16,806 nt of DNA from Chthoniobacteraceae bacterium (GTDB lineage: Bacteria; Verrucomicrobiota; Verrucomicrobiia; Chthoniobacterales; Chthoniobacteraceae): assembly GCA_031409335.1 (NCBI GenBank), contig JANNWY010000068.1, forward strand, positions 1 through 16,806. The letters run 5' to 3'. Below, in pieces: positions 5,326 through 16,603 of the stretch (its first letter is position 1; the number at the start of each line of letters is the position of its first letter). The translations under genes and the position numbers were made by a program. Under the pieces are notes generated by a model. It saw nothing but the letters and a program-made list of their open reading frames with translations, did no database searches and had not been told where the DNA came from.

Positions 5326-5467
5326 ATCGTGAGCAATTCAGTGGTTGCGAGGCGTGCGAGAAATCTCAGCCTGCGGCGCCTGCTGGCCGTGCCGATCCCG
5401 GCCCAGCTCCTCGTGAGGCCCGCGCGGCGCGGCGCAGCAGATGCGGCGCAGCCGTGGGATCCCTTTG

Positions 5468-5722
5468 GCGTCCCGGAGGGATGCAGGAGATTAGCCGGGG
5501 GTGAAGCGCAGCGGAACCCCCGGATCACCGGAGAAAACGCGGCGCGCCCCGAAGGTGGCGCAACAAGCCTCGCGCGGGTTTCTCGCGCCGCCTTCGGGGC
5601 GCCTCGTGAACTCCTCAAGTTCCGGGGGTTTCGCCCTTCGGCAGGCTCAGGGCCTCGAGCCTGTCGAGACGGCTCGTTCCTCGCGCCACCCCCGGCTACT
5701 GTCTCTCGTCCCTGCGGGACGC
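5468..5722. repeat. ~255-bp nested inverted-repeat element (REPIN/MITE-like)
   Basis: There are four concentric arm pairs: 5468-5483/5707-5722 (14/16), 5492-5503/5687-5698 (12/12), 5515-5524/5621-5630 (10/10) and 5544-5561/5585-5602 (17/18). Confidence 0.85.
5634..5672. repeat. 39-bp mini-palindrome (copy 1), inserted in the right arm of the larger element
   Basis: The sequence is cccttcggcaggctcagggcctcgagcctgtcgagacgg, with stem tcggcaggctc/gagcctgtcga. It has no counterpart in the left arm and is 32/39 identical to the reconstituted copy at 15663-15740. Confidence 0.85.
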
Positions 5723-5974
5723 TGGCGACGAGGGTGCAGCCGATCAACAGACGCGCCGACGCGACGCGGCGGCCGAGCTGTCGGGTTTTCATGTGGACGT
5801 GTTTTTATTCGTGGGGCGCGACCAACGGAGGCAGTCCGGCCGGCCCAACGAATAACCTCCTTTTTACCACCTTTTCGCGCAATACCCACAGATATTCAGT
5901 ATTCTCCCAAGACTATCGCATCAAAAACACTGGCTGATGGGTTGGTCTGTCCAAGAGGCATCTGCCACCCAGCG

Positions 5975-9296: not shown

Positions 9297-9439
9297 TTCC
9301 GATTTGGCGCGTTGCTGCCAGACTGTCCGCGTTTTTTTGATCCACTCGCTCGGAAAGTTTTGTTGGCTGTTCAACCGGACGATCCATCCGGGACATCCGC
9401 CCGTGCCACCCCGCGTGCATTCCCTTCAAACTCCGCGCC

Positions 9440-10033
9440 ATGAAAACGCGGCTCCTCCCAGCGGTCCTCCTCGTCTCGCTCCTCCTGCCCGTGCAACATC
9501 TCCGCGCAGCCAGCGACGTCTCGGTTTCGAGCGCACTGACCAGCGGCAGAAGTTTTGGCGGCGGCAACCCCAATGTCTTCACCCCAACGGCGAATGCCGC
9601 AGTGGCGAACAACGGCACCATCCAAACCTCCCTCAACGCCGGCACCGGCGTGACCATCAACACCGCCAGCGCCGCCACTGGGAGCGGCGATTTCCAAATC
9701 GCCGTCGCGGTCTCCAAGACGCTCGGCCCCACCTCCACCCTCACGCTCAACGCCGTCCGCAACCTCGCCATCAGCGCCGCGATCAGTGCCAGCGGCAGCC
9801 CCCTGCCGCTTGTCTTCAATGCCGAAGGCACCATCTCCTCTTCCGCCTCCGTCGCCTCGAACGGCGGCAACATCACCATCAACACCGCCCAACCCTTCAC
9901 CCTCGGTAGTTCGCTTCATGCGGGAACGAGACAGGTCTTGTTGCAGTCCGGAATCCTCCGATCTGAGAGTTATTTTGCAAGTGTCACCGGCAATCCCGGC
10001 GACGCACTGAATCTCGACTCGCGCATTCCTTGA
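9440..10033 (+). pseudogene. N-terminal part of a secreted beta-helix/adhesin-like protein, probably truncated (197 aa)
   Basis: Signal peptide MKTRLLPAVLLVSLLLPVQHLRA is followed by G/S/T/N-rich filamentous-haemagglutinin-like sequence (TIQTSLNAGTGVTINT, TLTLNAVRNLAI, SNGGNITIN). The strong C/G third-position bias fades after ~9905 and there is no C-terminal domain. Confidence 0.65.
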
Positions 10034-10105: not shown

Positions 10106-10324
10106 ATGATTGCCGTTGAAACCACACCCGCAGGCATCCGCGTCACCATCCCCACCGGAGAAGTGGACCCCGGCCAGTTGGATGAAGTGCTGCGTTGGCT
10201 GCGGCTGGAATCGGCGACCCGGCGCAGCGCGATGAGCGAAGCGGAGGCTGACGCGATGGCTGAGACCGGCAAAGCGCAGTGGTGGGCGGAAAACAAAAGC
10301 CGCTTCATCAAAACGGGGTCGTGA
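10106..10324 (+). CDS. Putative antitoxin (72 aa)
   Basis: Small ORF whose TGA overlaps the GTG of the PIN gene (GTGA at 10321-10324). A promoter-like ttgccc-16-caaagt lies 6 nt before the ATG. Confidence 0.8.
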   Translation: MIAVETTPAGIRVTIPTGEVDPGQLDEVLRWLRLESATRRSAMSEAEADAMAETGKAQWWAENKSRFIKTGS

Positions 10325-10740
10325 ACGGACGGCGCGTCGTCGTCGATGCCAACATCGCCTTTCGCGCGCTCAGCCGGGGTCGCCACGATTTGGTGGCAAT
10401 GCTGCGCCCCGCGGGCCAACTCGCCGATGCCACTTTGCACGCGCCGCGATTCCTTTTCGTGGAGTTGTTCAAACACAAGGAGCGCATCGTGCGGGCCTCG
10501 CATCTCCCGGAAGCGGAAATCATCGAATCGCTGCACGCCCTGGTCGCGCGCATTGAGTTCCACAATGAATCGCTCATTGCGATTGGCGACTGGATGGAAG
10601 CCTGGCGCCTCTGCTCGCCGACCGATGAAAATGACACGGCCTACCTCGCGCTCGCACTGCATCTCGATGCGAAGTTTTGGACTGAAGACGAGGAATTGAA
10701 GACCGGCCTGCGGGCACGCGGATTCGACCGGTTTGTGTGA
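10321..10740 (+). CDS. PIN-domain ribonuclease, putative toxin (139 aa)
   Basis: Starts MNGRRVVVDANIAF and has the PIN acidic residues (VELFKH; TDENDTAYLALALHLDAKFWTEDEEL). The start was moved to GTG 10321 because of translational coupling. Confidence 0.9.
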   Translation: MNGRRVVVDANIAFRALSRGRHDLVAMLRPAGQLADATLHAPRFLFVELFKHKERIVRASHLPEAEIIESLHALVARIEFHNESLIAIGDWMEAWRLCSPTDENDTAYLALALHLDAKFWTEDEELKTGLRARGFDRFV

Positions 10741-11258: not shown

Positions 11259-11351
11259 GCGCGAATGCTAACGCCACACCCCACGCCAAGCCAAGCCAAT
11301 TGGGATTTCCACGCTTGCCCTCGCGCCCTGATTCCCGCCACACTCCCCGCC

Positions 11352-11765
11352 ATGAAAACGCGGCTCCTCCCAGTGGCATTTCTCGTCTCGTTCCTCCTCC
11401 CCGTTGCACTTCTCCACGCCGCCAGCGACGTCTCGGTTTCGACCGCGCTGACCAGCGGCGGAAGTTTCAGCGGCGGTAGCCCCAATGTCTTCACCCCAAC
11501 GGCAAATTCCGCCGTGGCGAACAACGGCACGCCCGCGTGGAGCCTCTGGCTGAATGGCGACCCGCGCGAAGTCGCCGTGCGCAAGAACTTCGTCCAGTTC
11601 CTCACCTCCACGACTTACTACGACCGCAAACAATCCGGCCAGATGCTCGTCGTGCCCACCTACCTCGGCACCGCCGAAGCCGGCACGCAGGTCCTCACCA
11701 ACACCAGCACCCGCGCCGGACGCGAAATGTTGTCCATGCGATCCGCGGTTGTGCGGTTGATTTGA
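11352..11765 (+). pseudogene. Chimeric remnant: second copy of the MKTRLLP signal-peptide N-terminus fused in frame to a different protein segment (137 aa)
   Basis: 11352-11530 is about 87% identical (156/179 by hand count) to 9440-9618. Similarity stops after NNGT. The sequence continues PAWSLWLNGDPREVAVRKNFVQF...YYDRKQSGQMLVVPTYLG with coding-like codon bias to ~11720. Confidence 0.7.
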
Positions 11766-12077: not shown

Positions 12078-12476
12078 ATGACTCCGCGCTTGCGCGCCTT
12101 GGTCCGGGGGCGGGCGGGCTTCCGTTGCGAATACTGCCATTTCCCGGAACGGTTGGCGGAACTGCGCTTTCAGTTCGATCACATCATCGCCCGGCAGCAC
12201 CGTGGCGCGAGCGGCGCGGAAAATCTCGCGCTGGCGTGCTTTCGCTGCAACAGCCACAAAGGCCCGAATCTCTCCGGCATCGACCCGCGCACCGGCTCGA
12301 TCGCCCGCCTGTTTCATCCACGCTTGGACTCGTGGGACAATCACTTTCACTGGCGGGGTGCGACGTTGCTTGGGAGGACCGCAGTGGGCCGGGCCACGAT
12401 TGCTGTGCTCTGCATCAATCGCCCGGATGCCGTTGCCGTGCGCACAACATTGCTCGATGAAGCGGTGGAGTTATGA
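12078..12476 (+). CDS. Zn-binding HNH endonuclease (132 aa)
   Basis: Contains RCEYC...DHIIARQHRG...ENLALACFRCNSHKG, followed by LFHPR...W..HF. Confidence 0.93.
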   Translation: MTPRLRALVRGRAGFRCEYCHFPERLAELRFQFDHIIARQHRGASGAENLALACFRCNSHKGPNLSGIDPRTGSIARLFHPRLDSWDNHFHWRGATLLGRTAVGRATIAVLCINRPDAVAVRTTLLDEAVEL

Positions 12477-14847: not shown

Positions 14848-15645
14848 ATGCTGTGGCTGGCCGGACAGGAATGTTGTCGCGTGTACAACAACGGCACGGT
14901 GACGACGAGCATCCCGGCCAGCAGTTCGGTGGTGTATCAAATCTCCGTGCCACCCGAGGCGACGCGCTTCAAGTATTCCTCGACCCACGCGAGCAGCGTG
15001 GTCGTGCGCCTGGAGCAGGGCACGCTGCCCGGCACGACGGGGACGCAGCACCTCATTTCTTCCGGCGCGAATAGCTCGCTGAATCAGCCGCTCTCGACCG
15101 CCGTGTGGCCGTGGCAGCCGAATCAGACCTGCTACGTGCGCTTCGTGAATAGCGCGGCCACGGCGCAAGCCATCACCTTCACCCTGAACGGCAAAAACGC
15201 GCCGACGGAGGACGAGGACAACGACCGCCTGCCCGATGCGTGGGAACTGCAATACTTCGGCACCACGGCCTACGGGCCGACTCAGGACAATGACAAGGAC
15301 GGCGCGAACAATCTGGCGGAATGGGCGTTCAACCTGAATCCCACGCGGCCCGACATCGCGGCGCTGACGCCGGGCACCGGCACCGCGGGCCTGCCGGTGG
15401 CGGGGCTGACCGGGAGCCCGGGGAATCAACACCTGACGATCGAGTTCATCCGCCGCAAGAACGTCGCGCTGACCTACACCGTGCAGTTCGCGAACTCGCC
15501 CGCTGGAGCCAGCTTCCTGTCCGCGGTGAACGCACCGACGGTCACACCCATCGACGCGAGTTGGGAGCGGGTGATCGTGGATGACAATGTGACGACCGGC
15601 GATCAGGCGATCCGCTTCGGACGGGTGCGCGTGACCGCACCATGA
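14848..15645 (+). pseudogene. Orphan C-terminal part of a large surface protein (no signal peptide); the ORF is open for 265 aa
   Basis: Coding-like bias starts at ~14881 (VYNNGTVTTSIP). There is no hydrophobic leader. It ends with DEDNDRLPDAWE...DNDKDG..NLAEWAFNLNP...RFGRVRVTAP, like the upstream gene. Confidence 0.7.
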
Positions 15646-15647
15646 AT

Positions 15648-15869
15648 TTGACACAGCCTTTCCCCCACGGCAGGCTCGGGTCCTTGCCGTTCGACAGGCT
15701 CAGGCCCTGAGCGGGGTCGAACGGGAGCTTGTCGAAACGGCAGGCTGTGATCCATCCCTGCCGACGAAGGCGCACTTGTCTCCCACGGTCGCGCAACCGA
15801 AGAGGGAGTCAGCACATCCTTGATCGGCTGTGGTTGTCGTTGGATCACGGGCAGGAAAGCCCGTGTTAC
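15648..15869. repeat. Inverted REP doublet (REPIN-like) whose left REP contains two nested 39-bp mini-palindromes
   Basis: The left REP, 15648-15662 plus 15741-15754, joins to ttgacacagcctttccaggctgtgatcca. The reverse complement of the right REP (15841-15869) is gtaacacgggctttcctgcccgtgatcca, 22/29 identical with two compensatory stem pairs. The insert spans 15663-15740 (2 x 39 bp). Confidence 0.85.
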
Positions 15870-15908
15870 TCTGCGCTCCGTCGCTTCGTCTCTGTGGCGA
15901 AGTGCGCG

Positions 15909-16358
15909 TCAAGGCGCCGCTGACGCCCGGGGTACGATGCAGGTAAAGCCGCCAAGCACTGCGAAGTCGTGCGGGTTGGTCGTCAGGATGGAGTCGATGT
16001 TCGCGATCCAATAAGTCGCGGCGAGGAGCGTATCGAGCAGTCGTTTGCGTCCGAGTCGATGCTGTTTCAACCAGGCGAGGAATTGCCGCACCGCCGCATC
16101 GTCAGGGTAAACCTGATCCACGTCGCGAGCGGTCCACCACTGGTCGGCAAGCCTGCGCGCTTCGCTCATTTCCAGCGGCTGAGTGAAGCGGCGCGGATCG
16201 GTAACCACATGGATGAACTCCGCGAGCACCTGCGGCGCAAGCGCCAGGCGATCGCCGGCGGCAAGCAAACGCGCGAGTTCGATACGCGCCGCTTCGTGAT
16301 CGGGGTGTTCGGCAAGTTCCGCGGCCACGAGAAAGCCGCAGTCAATGCCGTGCCTCAC
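15909..16358 (-). CDS. vapC: VapC-family PIN-domain toxin (149 aa)
   Basis: MRHGIDCGFLVAAE...QVLAEFIHVVT...RLLDTLLAATY...ILTTNPHDF carries the PIN acidic residues. It has a GTGA overlap with the upstream gene. Confidence 0.9.
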   Translation of the reverse strand: MRHGIDCGFLVAAELAEHPDHEAARIELARLLAAGDRLALAPQVLAEFIHVVTDPRRFTQPLEMSEARRLADQWWTARDVDQVYPDDAAVRQFLAWLKQHRLGRKRLLDTLLAATYWIANIDSILTTNPHDFAVLGGFTCIVPRASAAP

Positions 16359-16603
16359 ATCCTGCCCTCAAGCATCTCGCCAAGCAGATCGTCGTCCGCC
16401 GAAAACGGGTGCAGCACGCGGCCGACATGCGCCGGTGCAATATCGAGAACGCTATGTCCTGTGACGGCTGGCTCGTGCGACTCAGAAAGCGGTTGCGCCC
16501 TGCCGGTGCGGCCCAGCCGCGCGGCGAGGAAGGCAAAAAGCTCCTCCTGTGCAGGTGGCGGCAAGATTGACACCGCAGCTTCGATCTCGGCGAGCGTCTT
16601 CAT
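16355..16603 (-). CDS. Putative antitoxin (82 aa)
   Basis: MKTLAEIEAAVSILPPPAQEELFAFL... has an acidic C-terminus (DDDLLGEMLEG) and is coupled to the VapC gene. Confidence 0.82.
   Translation of the reverse strand: MKTLAEIEAAVSILPPPAQEELFAFLAARLGRTGRAQPLSESHEPAVTGHSVLDIAPAHVGRVLHPFSADDDLLGEMLEGRM

Follow-up and report, generated by a model that had tools for sequence, protein, structure and literature searches.

Nested 39-base hairpin elements in a REP-like repeat and a candidate GIY-YIG nuclease for their mobilisation

In the window, that is, the whole 16,806-nucleotide stretch of Chthoniobacteraceae DNA analysed here, a REP-like hairpin contains a 39-base element, which itself contains a second 39-base element. 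We interpret this nest as the product of two successive precise insertions, for which the elements may have been moved in trans by a tRNA-linked GIY-YIG nuclease whose gene carries the same hairpin arm; we assign this reading a probability of roughly 0.5. Each layer of the nest also exists alone, the insertions add exactly the element, and the arm matches that of the nuclease cassette. Mobility, precision and nesting are well supported, while the odds that the cassette nuclease is the mobiliser are about even and a new joining chemistry is tentative. The most general form of the proposal, in which a minimal UPF0213-like GIY-YIG protein mobilises cross-phylum elements of 24-40 bases, free of duplication and with subtype-specific targets, into repeats and into each other, is likewise rather doubtful. 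The 39-mers probably represent parts of a small nuclease cassette that lack its gene, and the element behaves as a non-autonomous REP/SRM-type repeat, a variant of the GIY-YIG-linked hairpin repeats. If the general form of the proposal is true, the elements of 24-40 bases would be among the smallest transposable units, using a transposition route other than that of DDE, HUH or tyrosine/serine recombinase enzymes. To our knowledge, the birth and spread of short bacterial palindromic repeats is largely an open question outside the RAYT-linked REPs. In genes, the family introduces frameshifts and short peptide inserts, and it is strewn through dead IS copies, affecting annotation across many genomes.

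The features of the nest are listed in Table 1. Excision of the inner insert leaves a 39-nt outer unit that is identical to copy 1, the un-nested element of the window, at 32 of 39 positions. Excision of this unit in turn restores a hairpin with a 7-bp stem, matching the inverted partner of the doublet with two compensatory changes in the stem and one change in the loop. The architecture described in the initial annotation is thereby reproduced at each step, including the compensatory changes; the loop change comes in addition. The inner element is located just inside the 3' arm of the outer element, beside the loop. It had been described as an inverted relative of copy 1; it is indeed inverted relative to the outer element, but an ungapped comparison to copy 1 gives only 14 of 39 matches, and its 3' 27 nt match free-standing copies found elsewhere. 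Judged by sequence, the inner element is a distinct subtype (type B) and the outer one is of type A, making these two subtypes of a larger family. Two successive precise insertions, as first proposed, are supported as far as precision and nesting go, but not as the work of one single element. The doublet is flanked by a convergent unnamed ORF (14848-15645) and a PIN-domain gene (15909-16358). No enzyme is encoded locally, in agreement with the suggestion that the mobilising enzyme is encoded elsewhere, and Rfam gave no matches over 15500-16000 at E values up to 1.

Table 1. Features of the nest and of the un-nested copy in the window
Feature	Position	Strand	Remarks
Host REP-like hairpin, left half (4-nt tag, 7-bp stem arm, loop start)	15648..15662	+	
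Outer type A element, 5' part	15663..15686	+	first 21 nt match 19/21 to the hairpin before GIY-YIG cassette genes in two same-family genomes
Inner type B element, 39 bp	15687..15725	-	inverted relative to outer element; single hairpin fold, z -5.8
Outer type A element, 3' part	15726..15740	+	
Host hairpin, right half	15741..15749	+	starts with the C seen at +1 of almost all insertion sites
REP doublet spacer	15750..15840	.	first 30 nt resemble empty-doublet spacers on C23, C71 and C115
Partner hairpin of doublet, inverted, empty	15841..15869	-	
Second type A 39-bp element (copy 1), un-nested	5634..5672	+	host is a different repeat family, inverted repeat 5468-5722

A genome-wide census, as called for in the initial annotation, reveals a dispersed ultra-short element. 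Ten positions in the genome match copy 1 at 31 or more of 39 bases, compared to none in the reversed genome, where the best match is 27; the matches are not due to chance. Type A is present in 14 copies (12, plus the copy at 5634 and a 55-bp derivative on contig C15). Besides the host REP (C23, C70), these occupy heptamer arrays, broken DDE transposase genes and palindromic repeats of other kinds. Its length in distinct contexts is 38-40 bp; the 39-mer folds end to end as a hairpin, and at least four of its six reading frames are open. Empty relatives of the repeat that hosts copy 1 are found on C1, C21, C44 and C137. This host is a multi-hairpin repeat, and similar ones precede Y1 transposase genes on C83, C229 and C188.

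All complete type B elements of this genome are part of nests (C68, C15). Scanning metagenomes for type B yielded 101 stretches in 82 distinct contexts, of which, on inspection by eye, eight are inside type A, about seven inside other arm-bearing repeats and the remainder free-standing. One-armed relatives of 24-27 nt with the common 5' arm are present in this genome and in at least 131 viral-contig stretches. In these (L254-L384) one-armed inserts of 24 and 26 nt that contain the 20-nt arm are frequent, in part tandem or nested, indicating that the element family is cross-phylum; no full type A was found in viral contigs. Within the taxonomic family of the window, 12 of 150 genomes contain type A. 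Its right end is found in 42 of 401 genomes of the phylum, many of these matches being single and at chance level, with 28-34 copies in G291, G459 and G503. At L156:270-380 (G207), a 24-nt unit with a type A-like end is present in four head-to-tail copies.

The precision of insertion can be read from a dead IS on C316. Aligned to its copies in G095 and G131, it differs by clean gaps of 26, 27 and 40 nt and contains one decayed insert; a 39-nt insertion with intact flanks was read by eye beside an unrelated deletion. These orthologous empty alleles show gains of exactly element length, confirming precise insertion without clear duplication. The target-site duplication is 0 nt, or one ambiguous C, an ambiguity that arises because the insert is followed by a host C in almost every case; the register is set by two sites in heptamer arrays that have T at +1. 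The same dead DDE-type IS (L239:330-1650) carries five inserts of the family in 1.3 kb, as well as two inserts of a different structured family of about 50-75 bp, one of which is found at the same position in the G131 copy.

For target preferences, 132 rows were reduced to 54 distinct contexts and, after dropping two complex nests and one site with short flanks, to 51. The base at +1 is C in 19 of 21 type A and in all 30 type B sites. At -1, G is found in 16/21 type A sites versus 1/30 type B sites (p=4e-8; the type B -1 base is uncertain where the element begins with a run of C). Type A prefers to insert between G and C, and type B between T and C. Both insertions in the window have C at +1; the -1 base is the usual T for the inner element and an atypical C for the outer one. 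The initial annotation had proposed an element that targets hairpins. When only Watson-Crick stems are considered, 12 of the 51 sites are in hairpin loops, compared to 18% of displaced controls (p=0.22), and general loop targeting is rejected. An excess appears for type A alone, and only if G-T pairs are allowed (11/21, versus 3/30 for type B and 17% for controls, the split by type being counted by hand). The firm target signal is the motif of one to two bases, together with a noticeable over-representation of dead IS genes and other repeats among the hosts.

Type B would have inserted into type A, and type A into the REP loop, each as a 39-base two-armed hairpin transferred as single-stranded DNA, with the nuclease acting in trans. 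On the opposite strand, both the element ends and the target break would fall just 3' of a G, as might be expected if a single enzyme cut the donor and the target at like positions. The released strand of 24-40 nt could be joined to exposed single-stranded DNA by the nuclease itself or by host ligation and repair. Retention of copies would be greatest in repeats and dead IS genes, and inserts of 24, 27 and 39 nt would leave the reading frame intact. Composites, once formed, may also spread with their host repeat, with halves lost or gained by slippage.

The host hairpin is REP-like by anatomy: it is a tagged imperfect palindrome of 20-40 bp, present in multiple copies and in inverted doublets. 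The search for empty REPs was successful, with 29 empty matches to the hairpin family elsewhere in the genome, two of them with the stem variant of the window and many in doublets with a similar spacer. Filled REPs have three stem variants, each of which also exists empty, favouring separate insertions. For the locus itself, the search gave no empty allele, a syntenic search among 150 genomes of the family included; a paralogous gene on C254, considered as such an allele, was rejected, as it diverges at its stop codon.

Nesting from parts that each exist alone is borne out by the intermediates: the 29 empty REPs, REP with type A on C23 and C70, free type B, and REP with both elements in the window and in L019. 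The two are combined outside this REP in L020, L021 and L023. The same B-in-A junction is found in three places among 185,579 species genomes, in Chthoniobacter and Verrucomicrobiota records, a search that selects the form in the window because its pattern was built from it; the junction is also present in G126, G090 and G041. Free of this selection, a 37-nt variant is found at the same inner site in L023, and five cases (L040, L059, L061, L115, L118) have type B at a second site and orientation, at the centre of type A and oriented like it; nests in other arms also occur in metagenome contexts. An A-like triple nest occupies the same inner site in G041, where nests are three deep. The different inner variants, the second type B site and the nests in other arms argue for repeated independent events.

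One alternative is that the locus inherited the nest ready-made instead of undergoing two events. A composite (REP+A+B, or A+B) would have formed a single time, after which repeat amplification or gene conversion of the host would have multiplied it as a fixed unit and slippage would have modified it. One host repeat and one composite are common to L020, L416 and L426 (L414 and L425, which repeat L019 and L021 letter for letter, entered the count only once), REP+A is amplified in G459 and G291, and 38 metagenome rows collapse to one REP+B context; from this it follows that composites also spread as fixed units. Halves are present in unequal numbers in C15, L069/L070 and L427, which points to later slippage. 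Harder to accommodate are the occurrence of composites in four or more types of host, with inner variants that differ, and the match of REP stem variants to empty ones; the first composite would still require precise insertion. We consider this explanation unlikely for the nest. A composite repeated as a fixed unit had been named in the initial annotation as a finding that would speak against it; the composite does recur, with a shared host repeat in three genomes, but independent events are seen as well.

For the preferred reading, two insertions mobilised in trans, a candidate enzyme is suggested by GIY-YIG genes. Inspection of their flanks in element-rich genomes revealed one gene with the arm directly before its start. 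The 20-nt arm is present within 600 nt upstream of eight of 24 GIY-YIG matches, all from one sub-group that is mostly located beside tRNA or tmRNA genes; a second conserved arm is present in 13. The arms are kept, with varying loops, across 38-75% protein identity, and must therefore be part of the cassette. The closest solved structures to the cassette protein, a single-domain GIY-YIG, are UPF0213 proteins. Copy 1 matches the cassette arm at 19-20 of 20 positions, and the outer element matches the arm variants of five family cassettes at 19/21, 19/21 (L432 and L433), 17/21, 18/21 and 15/21; the best of 150 random genome stretches reaches 17/21. The cassette is present in five of the 150 family genomes, in four of these within tRNA clusters. 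In L432-L436, clusters containing the cassettes comprise up to seven tRNA genes, several apparently degenerate. Three genomes contain both type A (12/150) and the cassette (5/150; p=0.004); among the 26 genomes of 6 Mb or more, p=0.03, related genomes not being independent samples. Three of the four genomes with at least four type A copies have the cassette (10, 9 and 4 copies), and in two cassette genomes no match to type A was obtained.

This genome, 98% complete, yielded no cassette gene; its only single-domain GIY-YIG has a different flanking hairpin, and inspection 3' of its tRNA genes revealed no cassette arm. No GIY-YIG gene is near the arm in the 131 viral loci (80 with wide flanks) or nearby in loci L003-L172, and no viral relatives of the cassette protein were confirmed. 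In the loci examined, no GIY-YIG gene is flanked by a whole 39-mer, nor was a cassette found with one half of the 39-mer at each end. In G291 and G459, 39-mers occur in pairs spaced by about 700-770 bp; these were considered as nuclease-cassette ends and rejected, being direct copies in repeats. We know of no integration activity for such GIY-YIG enzymes; for this reason, and given that the gene was not found in this genome, the mobiliser is one we infer. In G260 (C8; L224 / L385-L399), the two cassette arms form four gene-less tandem copies with a 107-bp period upstream of a GIY-YIG gene; the array adjoins tRNA-Ser, and one more copy lies downstream.

Another GIY-YIG group has to be weighed. 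The Ssn nucleases (SsnA, cd10448) are GIY-YIG single-strand nucleases with NTS/SRM hairpin repeats, for which the available text reports binding and cutting, not joining, of DNA, and the authors note an IS-like architecture (Chenal et al. 2025, PMC11893778). Precise insertion and self-nesting are not reported in the available part of that paper, and neither "tRNA" nor "cd10456" occurs in its main text. The elements could be tag-less SRM/CGTC variants spread by an Ssn-type (cd10448-like) nuclease such as that on C129 (L001:560-1085, G000), a single-domain GIY-YIG located between inverted TGTC-tagged hairpins. Both systems have dispersed short DNA hairpins, tied in the Ssn case and apparently also here to a single-domain GIY-YIG gene, and the hairpin core is shared with the flanks of family Ssn-type genes, on both sides in L437-L443, and with solo TGTC-tagged repeats on C108 and C224. 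The arm precedes UPF0213-like genes in relatives and the hairpin core flanks Ssn-type genes, so the arm does not single out one nuclease. In addition, the cut reported for SsnA is a few bases to the 5' side of the enzyme's hairpin (PMC11893778), which is also the position of one end of the element. However, the 39-mer has no CGTC/TGTC tag 5' of its hairpin, fuses two arms into one unit, and has as its best-matching partner the UPF0213-like group, which is tRNA-linked and has the two arms upstream of its gene; its 5' 20-21 nt match Ssn-type loci at 13-16 positions at best (chance level), compared to 17-20 in most cassette loci. The degenerate SRM search sequence has no match in 15600-15900 or 5450-5730, a narrow test since the strict pattern also misses the C129 flanks. 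An Ssn-type mobiliser appears improbable, to about the same degree as the fixed composite. As far as the published account extends, Ssn nucleases are shown only to cut; here, a candidate enzyme is named and the element ends, the target preferences and both filled and empty alleles are defined, which brings the question within reach of 40-base oligonucleotides.

Insertion without target duplication and with a one-sided target motif is the known signature of Y1 HUH chemistry, and both properties are observed for the elements. A Y1 enzyme (RAYT or IS200/IS605 TnpA) could thus move the hairpins by peel-and-paste; the genome contains 11 Y1_Tnp matches, and REP loops often receive type A. Against this, the 160 nt upstream of the 11 matches contain no element arm and show no shared ends, the host REP is absent from the 2.5 kb around each of them (several are near contig ends) and so is not RAYT-flanking, the target motif spans one to two rather than 4-5 nt, and the arm is tied to GIY-YIG genes instead. 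We judge a Y1 mobiliser less probable than the alternatives above.

Other known repeats differ further. REP/REPIN repeats, including GTAG and CGTC repeats, are associated with RAYT and, in the text available, have been reported inserted in other palindromes and ORFs (Di Nocera et al. 2013, PMC3733652); the host is REP-like, but the 39-mer is tag-less, has a wide range of unrelated hosts and has no Y1 gene next to it. The CGTC family is set apart here by its description in the text, not by consensus figures, and may overlap. The REP-targeting IS1397 and IS621 and the MITEs are described, in the part available, as having inverted ends, insertion into REP, and empty and filled sites (Delihas 2011, PMC3184786). 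The 39-mer has terminal inverted repeats as well, but at 38-40 bp it is below the 70-300 bp of MITEs, is gene-less, makes no target duplication and shares its ends with no transposase in the loci examined. Rickettsia palindromic elements are also palindromic inserts readable in frame, but are about 105-146 bp long, as described in the same two sources (PMC3733652, PMC3184786), and the verified coding insertions of the 39-mer are in a dead IS, not functional ORFs; this comparison is by description. The T4 bypass element, considered as a relative, is unrelated as far as its available text shows (10.1101/2022.08.31.505936). A literature search, with most subscription papers and figures outside its scope, found no published description of the 39-base elements.

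The assembly is supported by contigs, which tile the nest with zero differences at 15591-15711 (run X1) and 15684-16200 (runs X1 and X2); runs X4, X5 and X9 gave no support for the locus. Three of the four nest junctions are bridged by at least 31 nt on each side, the inner-left junction by 25 nt on one side. Although these contigs are from short reads of one study, possibly the source of the assembly, and no single piece spans the whole nest, an artefact of assembly from palindromic repeats is very improbable, given the zero-difference tiling and other genomes with the same architecture in different bases.

Elsewhere in the window, two PIN-domain genes and an HNH gene (10279-10740, 12078-12476, 15909-16603) are located between large repeat-rich proteins; one of the PIN-domain genes has a small upstream partner. 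The stretches 9390-9618 and 11302-11530 are a duplication, 83% identical. A short pyrimidine-rich stretch at 15870-15900 abuts the partner hairpin and may represent a third repeat family.
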